Notes under the pieces: model-generated
Database searches by the model: none
What the model saw: the letters and a program-made list of their open reading frames with translations, nothing else
Told to the model about the DNA's origin: nothing
Shown here: piece after piece, positions 3,905 through 19,875 of the stretch
How the letters are laid out: the number at the start of each line of letters is the position of its first letter
Position numbering within the stretch: position 1 is the stretch's first letter
Source: Neolecta irregularis DAH-3
Lineage: Eukaryota
Length of the DNA: 20,000 nt
Assembly: GCA_001929475.1 (NCBI GenBank)
Contig: LXFE01000243.1
Location: forward strand, 48,888 to 68,887
Direction: 5' to 3'
Position numbers and translations under genes: made by a program

Positions 3905-6900
3905 TCATACCTTCCCAGTCTTGTCCATGTTCATACCAACACCCTTATCCTGACCGGAAATCCGTGCAAGTACAACTTTCATCTTTTCTAGTAATTCAGG
4001 AATACGGTATGGTTTTGTCACAAAATCATCCATTCCAGCAGCGATCATTTTATCGATTTGTTCTTTTCGAGCGTTGGCACTTACCGCGATTGCAGGTACA
4101 TGACCGCAAAGTTCACCTTTTTGTTCCATTTCGCGAATCTTACGGACGCATGTTATTCCATCCATGACCTTTTTGGTCAACTCTAAATAAAGAAAGGACA
4201 AAGTTTTACCGGCATTTCTACGTCAACAAGACAGATATCCAGAGGAAAAGCATCGTCCAGGGCACTACTCCGGAATTTAGACTTTGCGATTTGTTCGAGT
4301 GCCTCTTGGCCATGATTGGCAACGTATGTTGTCCATCCGATTTGATTCAACTGTTTTCGAAGAATCCGCTGATTAATTACATTGTCTTCGACAATCAACA
4401 CGTGTAGGTCTGACAAGTTTAAAAGAGTGAAATTGTAGCTCGATTGATTTAATTGAAATGCATCCACTAATTTTGGCGAAGTTGAGACTACCGGTAATGA
4501 ATTCATCGATTTATCATCTGGGTTTGATCCACGTTGTGCCACGATATAGAAAGCAAAAGTCGATCCTTGACCTTCTACGGAAGATACTGTAATCTCGCCA
4601 CCTTGAAGTTCAACCAATTTCCGGCATATAAAGAGGCCTAAATATTAGGCGTACTGAGATTTCAAATATACCAAGTCCACTACCACCATACTTGACATGA
4701 GTCTTTGGGGTAGCTTGCATAAATCTTTGGAAAAGGATTGCCCGTTCGCCCTCTTTAAGTCCAGACCCTGTATCCGTGACCGAAAAAATTAAATATATCG
4801 GGTTCTCGACTAGTATAGTGCATTGGTTGATCGTCGAATCCGGAAGTGAAGGTCGTTCGGTTGATGCGCTAATGTTGAGTTTGATTAGCCTATGTGGTCT
4901 CTTATCCGTGAATTCTAAATAAATAAGTTCATAAAACTATAAGGAAATTGTACTTATGGCGTTTGTAAACAAATTGATGAGAACCTGATTGAATCGACTA
5001 GGGTCAGCTTTTACCCAACAGATACCTAATTCAGTATAACTTTTGTCAAAATCCAACTCAGATGCGATTTGCTTCGACTGTAATTCTGCCTCAAACATCT
5101 TCAATACCCCTTCCACACATTCCTTTAGCTGGAAATCGACAGGTGTAACTAACAATAAATTTGAATCGACTTTAGATAGCGTCAATATATCATTGGTAAT
5201 TCGTCTCATATGTGTTGTGCAAAGAACTATTGTTTTCATATCTAAAATATTTTCGTTGACTTTCCGAGCGATATCGATTGAAGAGAAAGATTTACGAGAA
5301 GATACCATTTGTAAAAGATTGTGTAGGCTCTCAACGACAAAATCGACCGTCTGTATGATGGCACCGAGAGGATTTCTCATTTCATGGGAAGTCATGTCGA
5401 TAAAATATTCCTGTTGCCGTTTCCGTTCAATTCTTGATGTCAGAAGGAGGCACATGGATGAAATCTTACGCTTCTTCAGCCCTCTTTTGTTGATATTTTT
5501 CTGAGTTTTTTCGTTCAGATACGTTCATTATACAACCGGTAACTCCTATTATTTGACCATGATGGTCATATTCAGGTGCTGAAGAAGCGATTGTCCATCG
5601 TTCTTTACCTTGGTATGGGGTCTTCCAACGATATTCTAGCCTTCTAAATTTTCGTGATTAGTATGCTTTGGAAGAAACGAACTGCTGCTCTCCACGGAAA
5701 CACTTTTCCCAACTTGACTTTACTAGCTTCAAATCATCCGGATGTATGCTGTCCATCCATTCTGTTAATGGCTGGGATTTTGGGTTGCCAGAAATTTCCG
5801 ACCACGCTTGGTTGACGTAAGATAATGCTCCTGATGAATCGGCTATGTATATTCCAGCAGGACAAATCTCTGCCATGCGAGTGAACTTCATTTCTGATTG
5901 CTTCAACTCTTTTGTTGTTTGAGCTAGCTGCCTTTGCAACTCGATGCCATTTTGACGACTGAGTTCAGTAATTTCGTTGACTCTTAGGGATAAGACTGAT
6001 GATTTAGCGGGAAGGGCATACCGTTTGACATCTTCTTCGAAGAGTTGTACTCGACCCATTCCAGTTGCCAGTTGTCGTGACAATAACTCTAGAAAGATTT
6101 GATAAACTTCATCAAAAGGACGTCGAGGATTCAAGCCCATCATCAACATGCCGCTTGGCCGATCGCCTTCATTTGCAAATATTGGGTATATGACAGCTCG
6201 TTGAACCGGAATATCCCACCCTCTCCTACATTGATCCGACCCAGCACAGAATTCCTCAACGTTTTCGAATAAAACATAAGAAATGGATTTGTGTGCGGTG
6301 ATGTAGTATTCTGCAAGAGGGGATGAAGCATCTATAAGATAGGGTATCAAATTATGGTTAGAGGGAAGTCCTATCGATGCACTGAGGACAAAACTGAGTT
6401 GCTGGATTTTATAGATACAGGCGAAAGGGATATCGTAAGGATTGGAAAGCAACGATTCAAGCGCTACCTGATAAAAGTTATCGGCTTCCTGGGCGGTGGC
6501 TAGAGGATCACTAATGGACTCGCACTCGATATACCTGCCATCTGCCCGAGATTTCTCAGTGTTTGAATATGGCGTTCTGCGATTACTCGCTTTGTACTAT
6601 CGAAAGCAGGGTTCAATAGCCCGCCGACTTTTCCGTCTGGATGCAAGACGGGAACAAGGCTCCATGAAAAATAGCATTCTTCGAGGAACCCGTGACGATT
6701 TATGAAGAGGAGATCGTCGTCTTTGGTAGAAGGTTTGGCGTTGTAGAATGCATTTTCCATTGTCTCTTCCATAAGTTGCCAGATCTGCAGGGCTATCAGC
6801 ACTAGACGTCTCGTATGGCTAGGCTACCTCTGGCCAGCCCTCGCGATAGAGCTTCCCTAGAAGGGATGGGTGTTTTTGGGCTGTTAATTCAGTGTATGGC

Positions 6901-7427
6901 TTGTTGTACAGGATGACAAGGTCTTCTCCCCAGTACAAAGCGGTTGGAAAGGGACAGGCGAGGACGAAGCTGCATATTGTTCTGAGGGCAATAGGCCACT
7001 CGCTGGGATCACCTATGGAGGTATTTGCCCAGTCCACGCTTTCCAGCAGCTTTATGTGGTTTTGGAATGCCTGCGACTGCTTATGGAGGTTCACTACGCT
7101 GGGGAACCCTGTGCTCTCCGCGGGTTGGGTTTCGCCAGTGACGATGCTCGAGCCGCGCACCAGCGTCTTTGTCCACCGAATCTGCGAGTGATGAGCAGCG
7201 AATAGCCCTGCAGGCGTGGAATAGTGCACTGGCGACATTTTGTCGAACAGGAAATGTGCAAACGGGTCTGACAGCGCGACCAACGAAAATATGCAGGATG
7301 CGCCCAGATATTCTTTGAACCGCGGGTTCGAATATGCCGTGCGCTTAGTCGTGCCGCACACAACCAGCGCAGGCACCGGAAGTGCATCCAGATATTCGAC
7401 CAGCAGCAGATCGCAAGGCCCGTGCAT
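3905..7427 (-). CDS. Hybrid sensor histidine kinase (PAS-GAF-PAS-HisKA-HATPase-REC), about 1071 aa, resembling fungal group XI HHKs
   Basis: Nine exons (7427-6828, 6784-6535, 6499-6022, 5982-5683, 5643-5470, 5432-4954, 4914-4672, 4637-4210, 4168-3905) total 3216 nt in frame. H-box DMTSHEMRNPL, N-box QVLINLFTNAIKFT, G-boxes DTGSG and GGSGLGL, receiver VEDN...DVEMPVMDG...TKP. Confidence 0.93.
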
Positions 7428-7618
7428 TTGCAGGACTGGCGCTAGAAAAAAGAATTTTTTTATTGCGGCTTAGAAAGGATGGCAGAAGGCAAAAGGGCGA
7501 TTCGGATTTCGGTTTCCTCGGGTTCGGCGCGACCCCGGCGGGTGATTATAGGGTAGGGGCAGCGCCACTCCCAAACCTCGAGGTGCGCCCTTTGATCCAA
7601 ACCATTCCACACAAACGC
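7428..7618. promoter_or_regulatory. Short divergent (bidirectional) promoter region between the histidine kinase and the RnpA-like gene
   Basis: Only 191 bp separate the two head-to-head ATGs. Contains an A/T tract (7445-7462) and a GC-rich core. Confidence 0.5.
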
Positions 7619-8553
7619 ATGAATCCGCCATTTATTCTCAAAGGCATCCCCGCATTCCAGGGCCTCGAGCGTTTTTTTGCAATGCCCTCGAAAATCCGCA
7701 CACCTGCTTTTAGCCTCCGCGTCCGCTTTCGCGACCCCAGCGACAAAAATCCCGTTCGAGTCTTGGTTGTCGCCAGCAAGAAACAGATTTCAAACAGTGC
7801 TGTTGTCAGAAATCGTGTGCGGAGGAGGATAATGGAGGCCGTACGAGTCTCCCTCAGAGAAACAAACCTCTCTTTTGTCTTTGGTGTGCCATCCATCTTC
7901 GTCCCTCTCGTTGACCCGCAAAAGACTCTCCACGTGATCTTTTCTTCATCTCGCTCGTTGAAGTGTATTCCATGGAGTGGACTGCTCTGCTTCACTATGT
8001 CAGAAATGCAATCGTCCAGACGGAGACGCAAAATCCCAACCTCACAAGACGTGTGACGTTGCCTAGCCGTGTAACGTCGCGCAACCAAAAGCCCGTGCCA
8101 AAAGGACAGGAATCTCTGAATAAAAGTCCAGTAAAACACAGATCAGAGTCGATAGACTATGTCATGACAAACTGGGCTAAACCGTTCTCCTCATATTTTT
8201 CCAACAAACCAGAAAAATTTAAACCTCGTTCTCCAGGCGACTTTAATTGTACTAAAAGAGACCGGAATTGTACAAATCCATCTCCGGAGCCACCTCAAAG
8301 ATACGAGAATACGGAAAAACAGATCTCCAGGTCATCACCAGGAAAAGAAAGATCACCACCTAAACAAACAGAGACACTGCAATGGTCCAATTTTTCTCGT
8401 TCAAGTAACACAAGAGATCAAAACGATAGCCATATAAGAAACCTCGACTCACTGTCTCCGCACTGGGAACAGCCTTCCTGGTCATGCAAAGGTCCAGAAA
8501 ATATCATGAACATCCTCAAAAGAGGAACAAGGTCACAAGGAAGAAGAGACTAG
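7619..8553 (+). CDS. Bacterial-type ribonuclease P protein (RnpA-like) domain with long low-complexity C-terminal extension, about 297 aa
   Basis: Exon 1 (7619-7883) encodes RVLVVASKKQISNSAVVRNRVRRRIMEAVR, the RnpA RNR motif (K...AV.RNR..R...E). A 41-nt GT-AG intron (7884-7924) joins it in frame to DSPRDLFFISLVEVYSMEWTALLHYVRNAI, consistent with the final RnpA strand and helix. An S/P/R/K-rich tail follows to TAG at 8551-8553. Confidence 0.8.
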
Positions 8554-8989
8554 ACTTAGCAAGATCTTGTCTCGTTCCCCAATCAAGGGTTGGAAAAATT
8601 GACATCTTGCTCATTATTTATCTACTGGTATAAAAGCGAAATTCTGGCGTTTACCGCCACATCAACCAAACAGCATGTGGGGACTTAATAATGTCCCATG
8701 ATCAGACAGCACCGGCACTCCTCATCGCAAACCACCATGACTCACCCAGCGATTCAAGGCTCACTGACGTCAATGCTGATCAAAACTGTCTGACTGTGGC
8801 AAACAGTACCACCGAGTCAATTCAGGACGGTCACAAGCTTCGCCACTCGAGAGGTATGCAGGGAGGCAAACAGAGATGAGGAAGCGCATGTGCCAGTTCT
8901 TCTATCAAGCCAGGCCAAACCGGAGCAAGAATATACGTAGTTGTCTTTATTTCCTGAATCGCGATCGTATATTCCCAGCGAAGCCTCCT

Positions 8990-9960
8990 GGGAGGCAAGT
9001 CCGGACACCCAACTCTCCCACAGCAGTCTGTTTTTTTGCATGAAATTACCCTCACAACAACATGCAGCAGTATCAAGCGAGATAATTTCAAAACTTTGCT
9101 ACTAGTAACTCGCAAGGAACTCCCAGTGTAAGGATATACCCAATCGGTATACCTAACCAATACAGTAATCAGGCGTTGGTAGAATATGAAGCGGAGTTCG
9201 TAGTGATACCTATCCTGACTCACAACATTTAGACTAGAAATATATCCTGGTCTTATTTGTAATTTCTGGCGATAAGCTTACACCCAGTTCCAGAAATCCC
9301 TCTCTTCACCATGGAATTGCAAAAAACAGTAAAGATGCAAAATATCTATACGTTGGTGTTCGTGATCTGGAAAAGCCAGGTCAATGTCTAATATTTACAC
9401 CGAATATGTTGTGCTTGTCCTTCAAAGACTCTTTCAGCGCGGTTAAGCGGTAGGCCAATTATCCTTTTTTGTGGTTCCGATGAATGTTAAAACGTCCACT
9501 AGAATCTCTATTCTAAAGCACTCAAATTAGGCATTCTGGGATGTAAGCTTTCTCCTACTTATATATCCCATAGTCAAGATCCGAAGCCGAGCTTATTCAC
9601 GCAGAGAATTCCAGGAGTGGAAATACCTGCTCATAACCAAAGACCCGCCGATACCCCGGGAATAAACCAGTCGCAGATGTCGTCGAATTGATATTTGGCG
9701 CAGCTTACCTTAGCGGTGCAGTTGAAGAAGGTTTTCATGTTGCGTAAGTGTTTGGGTTATCAGTGTCTGGTGCTGGTAATTTTGAGTATCTTGGCGAAAC
9801 AGCTGGCATTATATCCTTATGGTAATTTAATCGGATACTTTGTAGTTAACGCGACAAGGAATACGTCAACTAATGTAGGCAAGACTTGAGCTCGGTGATG
9901 ATACTTGAACTCTAGCCATATTTCTCTTTCATAACCCAAACTATTCAAATGCCCAGAAGT
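8990..9960 (+). pseudogene. Dicer-like pseudogene (platform, RNase IIIa and RNase IIIb remnants), LTR-disrupted and internally deleted
   Basis: Collinear fragments: VFLHEITLTTT...FKTLLLVTRKELP[solo LTR]VPEIPLFT (platform-like, 9030-9310); NLYSKALKLGILG (from 9503); NKPVADVVELIFGAAYLSGAVEEGFHVA*VFGL (from 9661, RNase IIIa end with in-frame TAA); NLIGYF (about 9824) and RLE-LGD/ILEL (9882-9912, degenerate RNase III signature with indels). Boundaries approximate. Confidence 0.8.
9127..9282 (+). mobile_element. Solo LTR (156 bp), LTR retrotransposon
   Basis: Termini TGTAAG...CTTACA with a perfect 5-bp TSD CCCAG (9122-9126 and 9283-9287). Similar to 11849-12042 and the fragments at 17590-17970. 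Strand is relative to the family consensus. Confidence 0.88.
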
Positions 9961-10076
9961 AGGCCTACGATATACAAACGTTCCCTATTCTAAAATAAAT
10001 TATTCCTACAAAAAGAAACTTGCCAGCAGCAGGCTTGAAAGTTTTACAAGTGACGTCCATTCTGTCTCTTAGAGGA

Positions 10077-11651
10077 CTAATGAATCAAAAACCTAAACGC
10101 AGGGTCCTTCAATGCAAAGTGCCATTTGAGAGCATCCAGAGTCGGATCAAATTTTATTGCTTGACCCAGTCCCTTTATGTCAATATAAAAGAACTCTTCG
10201 TCATTTCGATAATATTTAGCAGGTAATTTGTATCGACCATGACTTGGGCAATTGAGGCATTGAGAAATTCGATATTTCATAAGTGCCTTTTGCATTTGTG
10301 AATCATATCCAAAGTCCGAGGGATAAAGCATGTCGACCTCGATCCATTCCATCTTCGGACAATGATAAGCTAGCAAGATGAAAACTTCGATGTCGAAATG
10401 AAATGGCCCTGTCGAAAGATTCTCAAGCTTTGTACAACCAATAAGAGATTTCAAGGATTTTGCCTGAAAAAAACTCTCTTGACTATTGAAAGAGACCGCT
10501 TTGAGATCTTCCAACTCTCCGAGGCGGTTGATCCAAACTTCCGGGAAGTCGAAATACGGGCCGCACATGATTTCGATGATTTCGATACCGTTATTGGCAT
10601 GAAGTAGAGAATGACAGAGATTCTCAGCACTGTCTATTGCGCCGACTGTGAATTTACGAAGATTTGAATGAGTTATCACCCACGGGATTTCCCGAGTGGC
10701 CTCTGATAATATGCAGGAATAAATTTGAAAAGTCTGCAGGCATGGTAGCTGCAACAATGTCTCACGAATATCGGAAGGAAACGTAATACTAAACAAGGAA
10801 AGCTCTTTGAGAGTATTTGCAACGCTCTTTAGTTCTGGGAGGTGAAGACGACGATCGAAATCATGCATGTCTCGACCGAGATGTAACTCCATCAACGACG
10901 ACGAGGTAGTAATCTCCCTAGTATCTTCATCATCCTGGCTCCACCAGACCCTTGCTATTTTCAAATTTTCTGAATTTTGAATAAAGAGCTCGATCCGGGC
11001 TTCCGGATATTCAATGTCGATTGAGATGACCTTCTTCGTAAGGCAACCTAGAAACGACCAAAGTGCTTGTCTTCCGGCAGGTGTATTGAGTGGATGCCCT
11101 GATATTGTTGTCCAATGCCCAGAAGAGTGAGAAGCCTTCATAACGAGTTTCACGGTCTTTATATTGGAATTGGATATATAGGACGCAAGGTTTTGCCATT
11201 CGACGAAACTGCGATTATAAAAAGGTCTATGCATATATCGAGCAGACCACAGTAGTTCTAGATCGATGTGAGTGATTCTTGGCAAACTTCGTAGTAACTG
11301 GATAGCTTCGAAAGTTGATTCGGTAGTAGGGAGTCCAAAATCATGAAAATAGGATAACGCGATTCTATTGACATAGGTTTCGATGTCCGACCTGTTTGCG
11401 AGCTTCCGAAGATTCAAAATGTGACGGTGATTGTGCAGACCTCTGTGCATATAGTCATGTGTGGGCCTCCTGAAATGACGAGAGATATCTGCCCAAAATA
11501 CGCGCTTGGTGAGATAGTGCCATTCTCTGCAGACAAGACGAACTGAGCATACGTCAAGGAGATCGACGCTCTCCAGGATAGTGCATTTCAATTCGACTGG
11601 CAGTTTGGCGAATGATAAGTTGTCTTCGATAATTCCATGATTACTGCACAT
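10077..11651 (-). CDS. F-box protein with LRR/RNI-like C-terminal region, 524 aa, intronless
   Basis: N-terminal F-box FAKLPVELKCTILESVDLLDVCSVRLVCREWHYLT, followed by repeated LxxLxL segments (TLKELSLFSI, LPCLQTFQIYSC, CTKLENLST, CPKMEWIEV). Confidence 0.85.
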   Translation of the reverse strand: MCSNHGIIEDNLSFAKLPVELKCTILESVDLLDVCSVRLVCREWHYLTKRVFWADISRHFRRPTHDYMHRGLHNHRHILNLRKLANRSDIETYVNRIALSYFHDFGLPTTESTFEAIQLLRSLPRITHIDLELLWSARYMHRPFYNRSFVEWQNLASYISNSNIKTVKLVMKASHSSGHWTTISGHPLNTPAGRQALWSFLGCLTKKVISIDIEYPEARIELFIQNSENLKIARVWWSQDDEDTREITTSSSLMELHLGRDMHDFDRRLHLPELKSVANTLKELSLFSITFPSDIRETLLQLPCLQTFQIYSCILSEATREIPWVITHSNLRKFTVGAIDSAENLCHSLLHANNGIEIIEIMCGPYFDFPEVWINRLGELEDLKAVSFNSQESFFQAKSLKSLIGCTKLENLSTGPFHFDIEVFILLAYHCPKMEWIEVDMLYPSDFGYDSQMQKALMKYRISQCLNCPSHGRYKLPAKYYRNDEEFFYIDIKGLGQAIKFDPTLDALKWHFALKDPAFRFLIH

Positions 11652-11848
11652 GACATCCAGTTCGTGTGTCGAACTTAGCGGGTTGGCCCCGTGAGAATAG
11701 CTGGAGCTGAGGAACGAGGTGGTGGGTGCCGTCGGAAGTCAAACTCATGTTGTTATATTAGGACCCTGATAGTGCGTAGGGACTTTCGCAGCCACAAATC
11801 TTGCCGGAGTTCCGTCCCGAGAATTGCTTAGGAATGCGCCAAGCCAAC

Positions 11849-12042
11849 TGTAAGGATATGCCCTTTGGGTATATATTACCAATACGGCAAGGTGGCTTGG
11901 CGGGAAGTATATAGAGGCGGAAGTTAGATATTCCTAGCCAATTACGAATACTTAGGCTAGGTATGTCCCTTTGTAAGAAGTACGAATACTTAGGCTAGTT
12001 ATAACACTTGGTCTTATCGTACTTCTAAGCGCATAGCTTACA
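11849..12042 (+). mobile_element. Solo LTR (194 bp), same family as 9127-9282
   Basis: TGTAAG...CTTACA termini with a perfect TSD CCAAC (11844-11848 and 12043-12047). Internal direct repeat TACGAATACTTAGGCTAG at 11943 and 11981. Confidence 0.88.
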
Positions 12043-12446
12043 CCAACTATCTAAGCACCTTGCACATCAAGTACCCAGCACTACTAGAATACTTCCAACC
12101 ACGTTCAAGTCGGGAATCATTGCACTTATATCAGTTTAATGGATTTATTTCTTACTATATCATTGCATTCCCCATTGGGATAGCACTCGCTTTCATGGCA
12201 GGAGTTAATAACTTCTGAGTACTTGGATTAACGAGGAAGGTGGGGATTGTACGGATTATCAGGTGGATTCGCTTTGGCTCTAACATTGTAAGTCACTCAA
12301 ACCTCCAATGGTTGATCTCTTCAGAGTTGCAACAGCAAAAGTATTTGTAATAAGCCGTACAAAATGGGGAGCCCTAGTACGTAAAGTTGAAGATCGTTCG
12401 CGAGAAAGCGAAGAAAATGGAGATTTAGAAAGACCAGCTGAGCTGA

Positions 12447-14223
12447 TCATTCAACTAAATGCCATTGATACTCCAAAACTCCATCCCTTTTATATCTTAC
12501 ATTTTCCCTTAAGCTCTTCTTCTGAGAAATCCAATCATGGTCTATTTTCCAATTTACTCTTCGAGCTAGATCACAGACGATCTCATCGCACGGACCAAGG
12601 AGGCAGACGTCAAAATTCATATGTGTCACAGGCGTTTTTGAAATATAAATTTGCGGAATCATAGACAATATTCCAATCGTTTCGGCCACCGGTGAAACCT
12701 TTAGTGATGTTCCTGTTGTCAGCATTTGTTGAAAGTGAAGATACCTATTGCGATTAGGAGATCGGCTTTTTGTTTGTCCTTTTGGTGGAGAGTATCAAAA
12801 AATTCCAAGGGAAGATTCTCGTGGAAAAATATGATGTCAGGCTGGTGAAGTCAAGTCAAGCTCGATACCGGACAGAAATATACTTTCATAACACCCTGAG
12901 ATCGCTCCTCTTCTTCATCACTTTCATTCTTCCTTTTTCTTCTTTTTCTTTTCATTTTCCCATTGGCGTGTTCCCGCATTGTCTTGGTACCTTCTTTAAT
13001 GCACGCTGGGTTCGAGCAGTATGCAACAAGACCTGCTAGTATATCCCTTTCTATTTCCTTTCCAGGGACCTGTTGATGACACTGCATGCAAGAAGCGGTA
13101 GCGAAAGACCCGTGACATTGTACAATCTTCTCTCGAGGGAGACCACTTTTAAATTCCAAGTTATCAATATTCTGGGTGTAAATCCGTAGCAATTTGTGTT
13201 GTTCATAAAGGACGCGTAGGAAGGCATGCGTTGGGCTTACCCTTTCTGTTTTGGGATATATTTTGTGGGCATAACGATAGAAAAGTCTTCATGTTATACC
13301 TTGGTATTAGGCAGAGGATACGTTGGATCCTGTTTGAATATATCATAGTTGAAGATTTCCTGGAATCAGTAGATTCAGACTGGAATAGCACTTGAGGATC
13401 TTGAACTTCACCGGAACCAGCGACATCAGCATAAATACCACGCGAGCTTCGAAAATCAGGAATTCCGAGGCTTGTGCTGATACCTAGATTGGCATAAGAA
13501 AAGTTCTCTAGGAATTATTAAAGACCTGCACCTACGAGAACAACAATGTTCTTGCAGCGTTCCAGTAGTTTGACAACGTCGTCTGGCGTCCGGTATTCCT
13601 TTATTCGATCTCTTTTCCTCAGTTCTCGAAGAATCAGTCTTTTGAGCATCCTTTTGAGACTAAGTGTGTTTAGTAAACTTTATCAGTAAATTACGTACTC
13701 TGTCTCTTCAAAATTCATACAAGATTCAAACTAATTCATGAGCATGAGACTAATGGGTTAGATGCCATGTTATATCCGAAGGCGCTGAACAATTTCAAAA
13801 TCGGGATTTCCTGTTCTTTTAAGTGGTAATCCAGAAATTCCTCCCATTTTAGATCGCGCACTTTACATCTGATGTCAGTGGCCTCTTCCTTGGTGAAAGC
13901 CTCAGGATCTAAATGAATTCAGCCGGAAGAGAGATATTACGATAGGCTATACGATCAACAGTTTCGGCGGGATCGCCCAGATTTTCGACCAAATCATCAA
14001 CATAGGTGTTCGTGGACACATTTGACTCAGTGTCCGAATCTTCTGGTGATACTGACTTATACCTCTTGTGAGAAGAAGAGTATTCGCAGCTCGAATTAAT
14101 TTGGGATCGCTTGGAAACCTGGACGGCAGTGGAAAGCGAGATATTCGAATCGGGTGTTAGATGCTCTCTTGTAGCGAAACCGTTTTCTTGCAAAGGTCTT
14201 TCTGTTCCGGTATTGGAAATCAT
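12447..14223 (-). CDS. SIR2: NAD-dependent histone deacetylase, Sir2/Hst1 (class Ia sirtuin)
   Basis: Spliced motifs: [59 protein letters not shown] (catalytic His, Zn), CSNPAC, GVMKPDIIFFHENLP, GTSLKVSPVAE. Eight short introns; 13731-13765 is GC-AG and the first donor is ambiguous. Confidence 0.92.
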
Positions 14224-14518
14224 TTAATTGCAATGAAAGTATGGGAGTAGAGAATTTGCAAGTACAAATTTGTCGTACGTTAACGCGAACCACAAACAAT
14301 GACAGGTTGTTTTTTCTTCAACATTTTTTTAATGTGAAATGTTTTTAGTTCTCTATGACCCGATTGATGAGCATCTAGTTCTCTTCGGTTCTCCATAGAC
14401 CAATTGTTTAGCATCTCATAGTTTAGGTTATGTTGATAGAATTTCGATCTACATGCTGGGATATTCCGTGAAAACAAAGGAATTAAAGGTGATCACGGTG
14501 ATATATGCCGAAAATTTT

Positions 14519-15092
14519 TGTTTGAAGTTCGGAGAACATGTGTTTGCCATATGATTGTGGTGTCCTCTAAAAACCTTATGTACAGCAAGCTCTTCCGAGT
14601 TGCTAAAACATTGGTAGCACAAGATATCCAAGCCTTAAATCCCTTCTTACAAATTCCAACATTAAGTCGTTGAGTAGTCATGCAGAGGTTTCGCTGCTTC
14701 AATATCGATTGCGAACCTTGATGTTTTATCATGGTAGAGCTAAATTCGAACCTATCCTCGCAAATCCGAGTCTGAAACCGAACCCGATAAAGAAAATTCA
14801 CTGAATATTGATCATAGAGAACAAAACCTCAGACTAGTCTTAGCGGGAAAAAACTGACTCTGGAATTCACAAGTCTTTTCCTTTCAATATTCCTGGTTTC
14901 TTTGGACCAGACTATCGTGGCCACTGCTCTCCCAGTAATTACAAGCCGACTTAATGCTTTGAATCAAGTCTTTTCATTATTCTCCAATCTAGCAGCAATT
15001 GATCTATACGATTGTCGTGTTTAAAGTTGGGAGAACATGGGTTTGCCACGCAATTTTGGTGTCCTCTGAAGATCCTCTACACACCAAACTTG
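14519..15092 (+). repeat. Tandem partial segmental duplication of the DHA2 upstream region
   Basis: 14519-14590 resembles 15019-15092 (GGAGAACATG.GTTTGCCA...TGGTGTCCTCT), and about 14625-15014 resembles about 15475-15852. Confidence 0.75.
14731..15014 (+). pseudogene. Truncated, frameshifted duplicate of exon 1/intron 1 of the downstream DHA2 transporter
   Basis: Aligns by eye to 15566-15852 (identical block TTTGGACCAGACTATCGTGGCCACTGCTCTCCCAGTAATT). Small deletions give early TGA stops; the splice donor is lost and the acceptor TAG is mutated to TAC. Confidence 0.85.
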
Positions 15093-17589: not shown

Positions 17590-17970
17590 TCTCCGCCACT
17601 TGCTGTATTGGTATGGGTATATCTGGGTAATAGCCGGGATATACCCTTACACGCACTATCTTAGAATAGTATACTAGAAATCCTAGTTTTATTTGTGCAC
17701 CGTCGAAATACTTGCAGCGATAGAGCCACAAAGGAATCTAACAATCCGTTTTCTCGGTTTTATTCAAGTCATAAGTCTGCAAAGCTCTACAACTGCAGCG
17801 TCGACGGGCGGTTTGTGTAAGCTTTGATACTCCGGAGTACAAATAAGACCAGGTTTATAGTACTAGCCTAGGTGTTGTATCTCCTAAGGAAACGTACCTA
17901 GCCTAAGTGTTGTATCTCAGGCTAGGTATTCTAATTACATGAAGTTTACAGCCGGCCATACCCTAACCCT
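17590..17970. mobile_element. Cluster of degraded LTR fragments (same family as the solo LTRs)
   Basis: 17590-17651 is the reverse complement of the LTR 5' end (ending CCCTTACA). 17670-17716 resembles the plus-strand 3' end (CTAGAAATCCTAGTTTTATTTGT...CTTGCA). 17816 to about 17970 is the reverse complement of the LTR 3' part (TGTAAGCT...CAAATAAGACCAGG...CTAGCCTA twice). No clean TSD. Confidence 0.65.
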
Positions 17971-18188
17971 GGGTTTGGTAATGATGATATTGTGTGAAGA
18001 ATGTGTTTCATACCACAAACTATATCAATCCTGCAAGGCAAATGAGTCATGGGTCAATTGGCACTAGAATTCTCCAATTGGATTTGAACAGGCTAAATAT
18101 TCCCGTGATCTTTGTATTATATAGAAGGGGGCGAAGAAGGGAATTTTCATTTTATTACAAACTTCAACATCTCAAATTCACATTCGTC

Positions 18189-18605
18189 ATGAGGCTCCTT
18201 GGACTTTTAGTCTGTCAAGCGTTTGTTATTTCGGCTCATCACCAAAAACATCATTACTTTACCATGTCCTTTAATGAACTATACAGCAAGACCTGTGTGG
18301 GTATTAAAGGTGCTTATTTGATACTGGACTCTACTGCCTGTATGACTTTCTTCATCGATAAAGACCATGTAATGCACATGAGTGATCCGAACACTGGCGA
18401 TGATTATGAAATATCAGCGACAAATGACGGCAAGTTGGCAGTTACTCCACTAGGGGACAGCGCAATTACTTGGCAGGAGGATGGATACCTTCTCAAATCC
18501 CAGGGTTTCCTAGAGACGTTCTGCTATTATAACAGCTATATTTATGTCATGACACCCTCCGCAAGTTGTAGTATCGGCAATCTCGTATATGATAACTTAC
18601 CATAG
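18189..18605 (+). CDS. Small putative secreted protein, 138 aa, 5 Cys
   Basis: ATG at 18189 downstream of a TATA-like TATTATATAG (18115-18124). Signal-peptide-like N-terminus MRLLGLLVCQAFVISA; intronless; beta-rich aromatic mature part. Confidence 0.65.
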   Translation: MRLLGLLVCQAFVISAHHQKHHYFTMSFNELYSKTCVGIKGAYLILDSTACMTFFIDKDHVMHMSDPNTGDDYEISATNDGKLAVTPLGDSAITWQEDGYLLKSQGFLETFCYYNSYIYVMTPSASCSIGNLVYDNLP

Positions 18606-18819: not shown

Positions 18820-19299
18820 GATTTTTATGCTGCCCACCTTCACCAAGAGGTCCAAACTATCCACCTGGAAAGTGCTCCAATCTCAATGGTTTTGATACCA
18901 TTAGAAAGCCCTCGTCGAGGCGCATCCGCTCGTGGTAATTACGTTTTCGTGTGATGTGTTTTGAATACCACACTCCCATGTGATACTTCCTCAAAGGTCC
19001 ACATTTGACTTTCTTATATTGAATTTGTTGGCAAACCATTAGTTTCGCCTTTAAATTCCGGTCCCAATAGTGCTTGTTTCGTTTGAATCTGTTGGTTGAT
19101 TGTTCAACTGTGAATCATTTGTTCTAAGTTCTGGTCACAAGATTTGTCATGGATCACGTGACATTGTCATCACTTCAACGTGAACTTTTTGAGTATGTGC
19201 GGCATACTTCACCAACTAAAGAAATGGCCAGATAGAAATCGTTTTATATTAGCAATTTTGGTTATTTAGTGGATTTTGTATTGCACCTATATAAGACTC

Positions 19300-19750
19300 G
19301 CCCGCCCCTCCGGCGGCGGGGATACAGCCTTGTCAGATGGTGGTTGACTGACTTATGGCGGTGGTCGAGTGACCGTGGGTGGTGGTTGATTGACGGCGGG
19401 CAATGGCTGCCGCGAGCACTGGTGCAGCACCAGCTGCCGGGAGAGATAGGGGCGACAAGGTGGATGGCAGTGAGAGAGCACAGGTCAGGGGATCTGGGAG
19501 GACTCTGCAGGTGGGTGACCGGGACAGCAATGCGGAGGAGACAGAGGCTATTCTGCAGGGTTAGTCTTCGTTTGAGCCGGATGAGTGAGTGTCTGCGATG
19601 GGTATGGGCGACAAGGGCGAGCGGCAAGGGCGGAGGGCGGGCGGCGAGGGCGGGCGGGCGGCGAAGGGAGGCAGGCAGTGCTGAGCTTAGCAGAGTAGCG
19701 GGTAAAGGGCGGGGCAGCGGGGCACAGGGTCAGCTTGAGCGCAGGTAGAA
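19300..19750 (+). repeat. G-rich, strand-asymmetric low-complexity tract with G-quadruplex-type motifs
   Basis: Seven G3 runs at 19628-19668 and five at 19700-19729. Much higher GC than the flanks. Confidence 0.6.
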
Positions 19751-19875
19751 GACAAAGTGGAAGGAGAAGATAGGAAATGTATAAAACTATTAGGAGAGAT
19801 TTTAACAAATACATTTACAACGTGGTGAATAATGATATAGGCAACATGATGAATGCCATGACAGATAATTAGGAC

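Follow-up and report, generated by a model that had tools for sequence, protein, structure and literature searches.

A probable remnant of a Dicer gene, split by LTR-like inserts, between two genes of Neolecta irregularis

A gap of about 1.5 kb that separates two neighbouring genes of Neolecta irregularis DAH-3 raises the question of whether it holds what is left of a Dicer gene and, if so, which parts of this gene can still be recognised and what has happened to them. The gap is part of a stretch of 20,000 nucleotides from contig LXFE01000243.1 (positions 48,888 to 68,887 of the forward strand), called the window in the following, and all positions are counted from the first letter of this window. 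It is bordered by a two-exon gene on the + strand (7349-8553) and by an F-box gene on the - strand (10077-11738). Fungal Dicer-like proteins have the domain order helicase, Dicer_dimer, platform/PAZ, RNase IIIa, RNase IIIb, and dsRBD. An original prediction had read 8990-9960 as a dead Dicer gene with relics of the platform and of tandem RNase III domains in the correct order. A segment of the + strand that begins near 9026 (possibly 8633) and ends near 9774 is very probably a non-functional remnant of a Dicer gene. It has two recognisable parts, one of about 55 residues (perhaps up to about 100) from the region past the Dicer dimerisation domain and one of about 45 residues from the C-terminal end of RNase IIIa. 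These two blocks show significant, collinear similarity to Dicer-specific regions on the same strand and are disabled by stops, a frame change, and inserts, which bears out the prediction that a sequence derived from Dicer is present here on the + strand, dead and heavily shortened.

The profiles used for the analysis were derived from several sets of proteins. With E. coli rnc as seed, 120 long RNase III proteins were obtained, almost all of them bacterial and including one Drosha, and 126 domain matches from these proteins constitute the bacterial-type RNase III profile. A 900-residue part of Drosha as query led to 67 proteins (P0173-P0239), which are mostly named by their source as Dicers of plants, animals, protists, and fungi and carry DEAD, Helicase_C, Dicer_dimer, PAZ, and Ribonuclease_3 families. 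A diverse-Dicer profile of the IIIa-to-IIIb region was made from 57 of these 67 proteins; P0173-P0176, P0183, P0195, P0197, P0200, P0214, and P0229 were left out as multi-copy models or as proteins without the Dicer helicase or dimerisation families. Protein P0193 resembled the relic in both places, and its last 1190 residues as query yielded 149 further representatives, which are nameless in the database and were taken as fungal Dicers from 27-53% identity over Dicer-length matches. The fungal Dicer profile comprises 62 of the resulting 150 fungal sequences (length 1200-1750 residues) and has about 1450 positions. Dinucleotide shuffles served as nulls (500 for sub-profiles, 200 windows for tblastn, and 40 for the bacterial profile), and the remainder of the window, real genes included, was the second control. 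In addition, sequencing contigs from two public runs of one study (X1 and X2) were aligned to 7000-12000.

The RNase IIIa block extends from 9637 to 9774 on the + strand in frame 1. It contains KPVADVVELIFGAAYLSG (9664-9717) and VFGL (9748-9759) and is interrupted by an in-frame TAA (9745-9747), with a further TAA just 5' of the block (9634-9636). Its K..AD..E..GA piece extends past the TAA at 9745-9747 into ..FGLSV, which corresponds to the ..LG[IL].. motif found after IIIa in Dicers. This block spans the K..AD..E..GA helix and the ..LG[IL].. segment leading to the IIIa-IIIb linker, and it retains both D and E in the ..AD..E.. motif. In all six frames of the window, the bacterial RNase III profile has its best match at 9643-9729 (9.7 bits, up to 10.2), followed by an unrelated place with 2.7 bits. 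Since this score is equalled by 2 of 40 shuffled windows, the bacterial profile alone is borderline, and the case therefore rests on the Dicer-specific profiles. When the 67 RNase III and Dicer proteins were used as tblastn queries, the six best alignments and 18 of the 40 best listed were located at 9583-9774 in frame 1. According to the domain maps of the queries, all of these align via the C-terminal part of IIIa and not via IIIb, and several tblastn alignments continue straight past the TAA at 9745-9747. The top score of 34.7 bits is reached by none of 200 shuffled windows (shuffle maximum 33.1). The diverse-Dicer profile gives 23.6 bits on the read-through (P 1e-9) and, across the window, 22.7 bits at this place compared with 3.9 bits at the next best one. 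A sub-profile for the C-terminal part of IIIa reaches 31.0 bits at 9661-9771, compared with 10.1 bits at the next best place in the six frames. The same piece scored as the C-terminal part of IIIb obtains only 8.4 bits, so that the match is specific for IIIa. With the fungal profile, the block has 33.5 bits and none of 500 shuffles is as good (null maximum 5.1). Likewise, tblastn with the 150 fungal Dicers places 35 of 40 matches of at least 27 bits in this block (9600-9699), the other five being scattered singly. Under every RNase III or Dicer profile applied, this block is the best place in the window.

Some further places in the window were noted during these searches. The runner-up for the sub-profile of the IIIa C-terminal part is 18112-18183 (+ strand, frame 1; positions 33-56 of this sub-profile). 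It lies inside an open frame (17988-18605) that has no Pfam family, and its resemblance to a Dicer piece was taken as chance. A low-complexity region rich in proline and serine at about 19290-19830 (- strand) attracted spurious tblastn matches (27-31 bits) from low-complexity parts of several Dicers. In frame 2, 9665-9736 has the best score in the window for the mid-domain pattern ..SN..L..A..L.., a weak one of 6.7 bits for IIIa and 5.6 bits for IIIb. This stretch overlaps the block that has 31 bits in frame 1, and scores of 5.8 and 5.1 bits are obtained elsewhere in the window; its likeness to the N-terminal part of IIIa was treated as a result that is probably due to chance.

The platform-region block is divided into two halves, and its similarity to Dicer covers 9033-9126 and 9288-9349. 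The left half (9026-9126, + strand, frame 3) ends with ..LLVTRKELP and corresponds to positions 682-712 of the fungal profile, and the right half (9288-9349, + strand, frame 2) starts with PEIPLFT and corresponds to profile positions up to 734. The peptides LLVTRKELPV and PEIPLFT are found at 9099-9128 (frame 3) and 9290-9310 (frame 2), respectively. The predicted excision of 9127-9287 proved to be exact, because this interval consists of an inserted element plus one copy of its target-site duplication, and its removal restores both frame and alignment. With this interval removed, 9026-9420 scores 18.8 bits with the fungal sub-profile, compared with 10.5 bits when the element alone is removed (9127-9282) and 8.4 bits when it is left in. 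Taken separately, the left half (9026-9126) has 10.5 bits and the right half (9288-9420) has 3.6 bits. The block may continue weakly in the 5' direction at 8665-8675, to the left of the first LTR-like insert (long terminal repeat, LTR). Adding 8633-8675 raises the score from 18.8 to 21.3 bits and moves the start of the alignment to profile position 676, and none of 500 shuffles is as good (null maximum 5.7). By itself, 8554-8675 obtains -0.3 bits against profile positions 540-680, and 136 of 500 shuffles are as good.

In tblastn searches with Dicers after the excision, matches run across the junction and are collinear and in order, as had been anticipated. Among 217 Dicer query rows (P0193 counted twice), 26 match the platform block across the junction with at least 22 bits and 93 match the IIIa block with at least 24 bits. 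Examples of the former are P0238, with 38.6% identity over 57 residues, and P0331, with 60% over 20 residues. The platform alignments are always located about 35-80 residues past the Dicer dimerisation domain; in P0193, the matching residues are 803-846, just past Dicer_dimer at 677-767. The name of this block also follows the domain order known for Dicers. A possible further piece, also weak, is located at 9453-9488 (+ strand, frame 3, ..FFVVPM..) and corresponds to profile positions 767-779. It has 6.3 bits with 1 of 500 shuffles as good in a narrow test and 0.9 bits with 9 of 500 in a wider test between the blocks. An extension of the platform by ..AFWD (9531-9542) was dropped in favour of this shorter piece. 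The platform/PAZ region is thus present in part, as a relic covering profile positions 676 or 682 to 734; the remainder up to 1022 is absent, with a weak signal at 767-779.

After excision of 8676-9025, 9127-9287, and 9543-9604, both blocks are in one frame. On this excised sequence, the full fungal Dicer profile obtains 32.1 bits (E 1.1e-12 for one sequence) with collinear matches at profile positions 674-764 and 1072-1110. The predicted order, with the platform before RNase IIIa, is found in all 12 Dicers that match both blocks. The blocks are 350-385 residues apart in the queries and about 80 codons apart in the relic, so that about 300 residues are missing between them. Stops are located at 9389-9391, at 9528-9530 (frame 3), in the codon split at the splice site, at 9634-9636, and at 9745-9747. 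With stops in and between the blocks, the frame change, and the two inserted repeats, no open frame extends across either block.

The predicted tandem RNase III relics are reduced by these results to the C-terminal third of IIIa, for which the motif block is present with 31.0-33.5 bits. The signature half of IIIa (profile positions 960-1060) has -1.8 bits, and 233 of 500 shuffles are as good. Profile positions 1111-1455 on 9772-10076 are equalled or beaten by 184 of 500 shuffles. For a profile of the N-terminal part of IIIb on the same stretch, 352 of 500 shuffles are equal or better, and 287 of 500 with 9842-9878 removed. Similarity to Dicer is accordingly not detectable in the supposed RNase IIIb fragments at 9775-9960 (+ strand). 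All peptides quoted in the original prediction are present in the frames given for them, including NLIGYF (9824-9841, frame 2), RLE and LGD (9882-9899, frame 3), and ILEL (9901-9912, frame 1). As a signature of the ERLEFLGD type, RLE-LGD has 0.2 and -0.0 bits and ranks at 109 of 2325 and 224 of 2825 among pieces of the window, and NLIGYF and ILEL as relics of IIIb do not exceed chance in the test of 9772-10076 with 352 of 500 shuffles. The peptide NLYSKALKLGILG at 9503-9541 (frame 2) is a possible piece from the middle of RNase IIIa (profile positions 1023-1033). In a narrow test selected post hoc, it obtains 4.7 bits, which 4 of 500 shuffles reach; in a wide test, it has -1.8 bits, which 233 of 500 reach, and with the diverse-Dicer profile it has rank 136 of 2325. 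Removal of 9543-9604 brings it into phase with the frame-1 IIIa block, and the assignment to RNase IIIa is plausible but unproven. Because the signature motif, which forms the first half of the IIIa catalytic site, and the whole of IIIb are absent, the remnant has no possible catalytic centre and cannot encode an enzyme.

What interrupts the remnant are two repeats that resemble solo LTRs. Repeat 1 has 345 bp (8676-9020), TG..CA ends, and CAGCA direct repeats at 8671-8675 and 9021-9025, and it is located at the 5' edge of the relic. Repeat 2 has 156 bp (9127-9282), the ends TGTAAGG..CTTACA, and a CCCAG target duplication at 9122-9126 and 9283-9287, and it is located inside the platform relic. 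The interval 9127-9287 is thus no intron but this TG..CA repeat together with one copy of its 5-bp target-site duplication. A related, longer copy of repeat 2 extends from 11849 to about 12045 just upstream of the F-box gene and is flanked by CCAAC on both sides, and a 41-bp fragment of the same family with 83% identity is present at 17838-17878. The summed contig depth over 8670-9337 is 4,400-14,700, compared with about 390-444 on either side. Over 11843-12000, it amounts to about 36,000 compared with about 390, which is the highest bin of 7000-12000. The depth of these two regions is 10-80 times that of the adjoining sequence (10-30 times for the inserts), and runs X1 and X2 contain many diverged copies. 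Other copies of repeat 2 stop exactly at 9127 and 9282, where contigs have loose ends, and copies of repeat 1 diverge from the window beyond 9017. Because of their TG..CA ends, the 5-bp direct repeats, the high depth, and the copies ending at the element edges, both inserts look like solo LTRs. They share with the solo LTRs of LTR retrotransposons the TG..CA termini, short terminal inverted repeats, 5-bp flanking target-site duplications, multiple copies, and the lack of an internal coding region. A full-length parent element with gag/pol was not found in the window. Since 156 bp is short for an LTR, 9127-9282 may also be a small terminal-inverted-repeat element with a 5-bp duplication.

A third interruption, located between the two blocks, is an intron of 62 nt (9543-9604, + strand, GTAAGC...CAG), which is skipped in contig 13 of run X2. 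This contig covers 9284-11761 and joins 9542 to 9605. The stretch 9842-9878, for which an intron-like character had been suggested, is kept in the part of the X2 contig covering 9605-11761. A second skip in X2 removes 41 nt with GT..AG borders at about 7883-7924 and opens a frame of 387 codons, stop to stop, through the two-exon gene at 7349-8553. As the 41-nt skip opens the frame of this upstream gene, the X2 skips behave as introns. In unique regions, run X2 has 99.8% identity to the window, and it contains about 11 million letters in 20,248 records; this small size and the uneven contig depths fit a transcriptome. Its contigs extend from the upstream gene to 8877 and, starting at 9284, across the relic as far as the F-box gene; contig depths are 54.9, 147.1, and 8.55. 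The remnant is thus probably located in a spliced + strand transcript from which the 62-nt intron is removed, as would be the case for a transcribed pseudogene or a 3' trailer.

Several observations weigh against the interpretation as a Dicer remnant or limit it. Only about 100-150 of the approximately 1450 profile positions are accounted for. No region matching the helicase was detected by tblastn over the whole 20 kb with 67 and then 150 Dicers, and the stretch upstream is a different gene. For the Dicer dimerisation domain (PF03368), the profile is at chance level on 8554-8675, and neither a Pfam hit nor any other trace was obtained in the 20 kb. The signature half of IIIa, PAZ, IIIb, and dsRBD were also searched for and not found. 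The term 'platform' is a positional label derived from P0193, and in a Pfam scan of three fungal Dicers, this region was not covered by any model. A Pfam search of all six frames read through stops (E<=10) returned no family, including PF00636, the RNase III family with which the domains were expected to be recovered, and a Pfam search with five single quoted pieces also returned none. Among PDB sequences, no RNase III was matched, and the sole match of a 28-residue piece was to a designed repeat protein (E 0.44). When 5.8 billion proteins were searched by word index with 9601-9825 at the 'longer' lengths, 80 candidates were obtained, none with E<=10. Moreover, the dinucleotide shuffle is a mild null, the Dicer-specific profiles were made here from nameless database proteins, and the bacterial profile has the borderline score described above. 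Run X2 is catalogued as 'DNA?', which is a guess, and the splicing is deduced from the two GT..AG skips. Finally, the evidence stops short of placing a full-length Dicer at this locus at any time. The blanks in Pfam, PDB, and the word-indexed search are expected, since the relic pieces have only 30-50 residues. Relics as short as these are missed by Pfam and word-indexed searches and become provable by family-specific profiles once the transposon inserts have been cut out.

These blanks, together with the bacterial profile and with NLIGYF, RLE-LGD, and ILEL being no better than random, could suggest that intergenic DNA resembles Dicer words by chance. This is very improbable, as two independent blocks are each matched by none of 500 shuffles and the tblastn score by none of 200, as the blocks share one strand and follow the correct order in all 12 Dicers that match both, as the match is specific for IIIa (31.0 versus 8.4 bits), and as the alignment continues past a stop codon and across the site from which a transposon insertion was precisely excised. 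It is even harder to believe that the DNA still encodes a short Dicer-derived product such as a small RNase III-like protein. The retained D and E of the ..AD..E.. motif and the intron that is still spliced would be compatible with this, but both blocks lack an open frame, the catalytic site is without its signature half, and the 156-bp repeat cuts the platform block. A co-option of Dicer-derived DNA within the upstream gene's 3' untranslated region, as a spliced noncoding RNA convergent with the F-box gene, or as a source of small RNAs is improbable, too. In its favour, X2 contigs join the upstream gene to 8877 and 9284 through the relic to the F-box gene, X2 lacks the + strand intron, and the contig depths vary as in expression data. 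However, X2 is not recorded as RNA, the contigs reveal neither strand nor transcript ends, no Rfam family with E<=1 is found in 8300-10300, and transcription of a pseudogene does not require a function.

A further possibility concerns the origin of the remnant and not its descent from Dicer. A fragment of a Dicer gene might have been copied to this site by segmental duplication, by a repair-mediated patch, or by capture with a mobile element, and might have decayed thereafter, with one or more functional Dicers being located elsewhere. Such an origin is rather unlikely, although there are just two short blocks in the approximately 1.5 kb that separate two genes of intact appearance, the site has taken at least two LTR insertions, and traces of the helicase or of IIIb are not found anywhere in the 20 kb. 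According to depth, the relic is single-copy, with unique-level contigs over 8962-9262 and 9233-11898, and the intron between the blocks speaks against a retro-copied mRNA. With 9601-9825 as query, the word-indexed search revealed no close paralogue with E<=10, which is weak evidence. The present evidence does not separate a copied fragment from decay in place.

For the non-functional Dicer remnant, the following course of events is proposed. Deletions would have removed the ends and much of the middle from a Dicer gene, or from a piece of one, on the + strand, and this sequence would have acquired stops and one or more frame changes. Two LTR retrotransposons would have inserted and later collapsed to solo LTRs, one of them splitting the platform block and the other one being located at the 5' edge. 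The upstream parts (helicase and Dicer_dimer), the part between the blocks, and the downstream parts (IIIb and dsRBD) are either gone or have decayed past detection. Homology, strand, order, inserts, and stops are established by the data, and decay in place by large deletions as well as present transcription are inferred. Repeat-induced point mutation (RIP) was considered as the cause of death and rejected: the relic has a TpA/ApT index of 0.85 and a (CpA+TpG)/(ApC+GpT) index of 1.25, and since these are close to the values of the window (0.74 and 1.25), there is no RIP signature. A more far-reaching proposal, which appears distinctly unlikely, is that the relic is a unitary pseudogene and the sole trace of a lost Dicer paralogue or of a whole RNA interference (RNAi) pathway, with the LTR insertions occurring afterwards and the relic being kept in a spliced transcript that would now be either the upstream gene's 3' trailer or a noncoding RNA convergent with the F-box gene.

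The surroundings of the remnant are fungal-looking nuclear DNA with short GT..AG introns and a G+C content of about 42%. In the upstream gene at 7349-8553, the first exon has a match to PF00825, the family of bacterial-type Ribonuclease P proteins (E 1.4e-8, 35.2 bits). As this family is unusual in a fungal-looking nuclear gene, the product may be organellar. Further upstream, a multi-exon gene on the - strand (about 4183-7469) encodes a hybrid histidine kinase with GAF, PAS, HisKA, HATPase_c, and response-regulator receiver domains. Its build is phytochrome-like, and PHY and PAS_2 were not seen in the frames scanned; an ESM Atlas search with its GAF/PAS exon found bacterial GAF clusters only. 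Beyond the F-box gene, which is convergent with the remnant, a gene for a SIR2-family deacetylase with at least two exons is located on the - strand at 12854-13514 (PF02146, E 3e-22 and 2.2e-7), and MFS transporters are encoded elsewhere in the window. A metagenome scan with the F-box protein for a syntenic relative gave 20 pattern matches, none of which was confirmed.

Taken alone, the remnant is an ordinary pseudogene, and its value for annotation is that the place is neither an intergenic blank nor a gene. Beyond that, a recognisable Dicer relic gives a date and a place to a change in the organism's set of RNAi genes. If no intact Dicer of the same clade remained, it would be a footprint of RNAi loss or of paralogue turnover, as in Cryptococcus deuterogattii, and in this case the two LTR insertions would fit a relaxed transposon control. 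A full-text literature search returned reviews of fungal RNAi loss, and the phrase 'dicer pseudogene' occurs in none among the matches listed.

With the fungal Dicer-like proteins P0193 and its 149 relatives, the relic shares the platform motif LL.TR..LP..P.F, the C-terminal helix of IIIa with the adjoining ..LG[IL].., and the strand and order of both blocks, with identities up to 60-64% over 20-28 residues. It differs from them in that about nine-tenths of the protein are missing and in being broken by stops, by a change of frame, and by two inserts derived from transposons. All RNase III enzymes have the ..AD..EA..GA.. helix in common, and the bacterial profile, like PF00636 a model of the general family, has its best match on the same spot. 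In contrast to bacterial RNase III, however, Dicer IIIa gives 31-33 bits on the relic instead of 9.7-10.2 bits, and the platform block has no counterpart outside Dicers. A fungal Dicer pseudogene that arose by truncation is already known: in the available text on C. deuterogattii (PMC4778953), DCR1 is described as a pseudogene with truncations removing key domains, and shortened genes are ascribed to extensive genomic deletions. The same text reports a collapse of the RNAi network of this organism, with AGO1 and AGO2 missing, RDP1 truncated, and DCR2 intact. As far as this text goes, C. deuterogattii DCR1 and the remnant described here have in common that they are fungal Dicer pseudogenes left by truncation, whereas the remnant is shorter and LTR-interrupted, and the network collapse is documented for C. 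deuterogattii.

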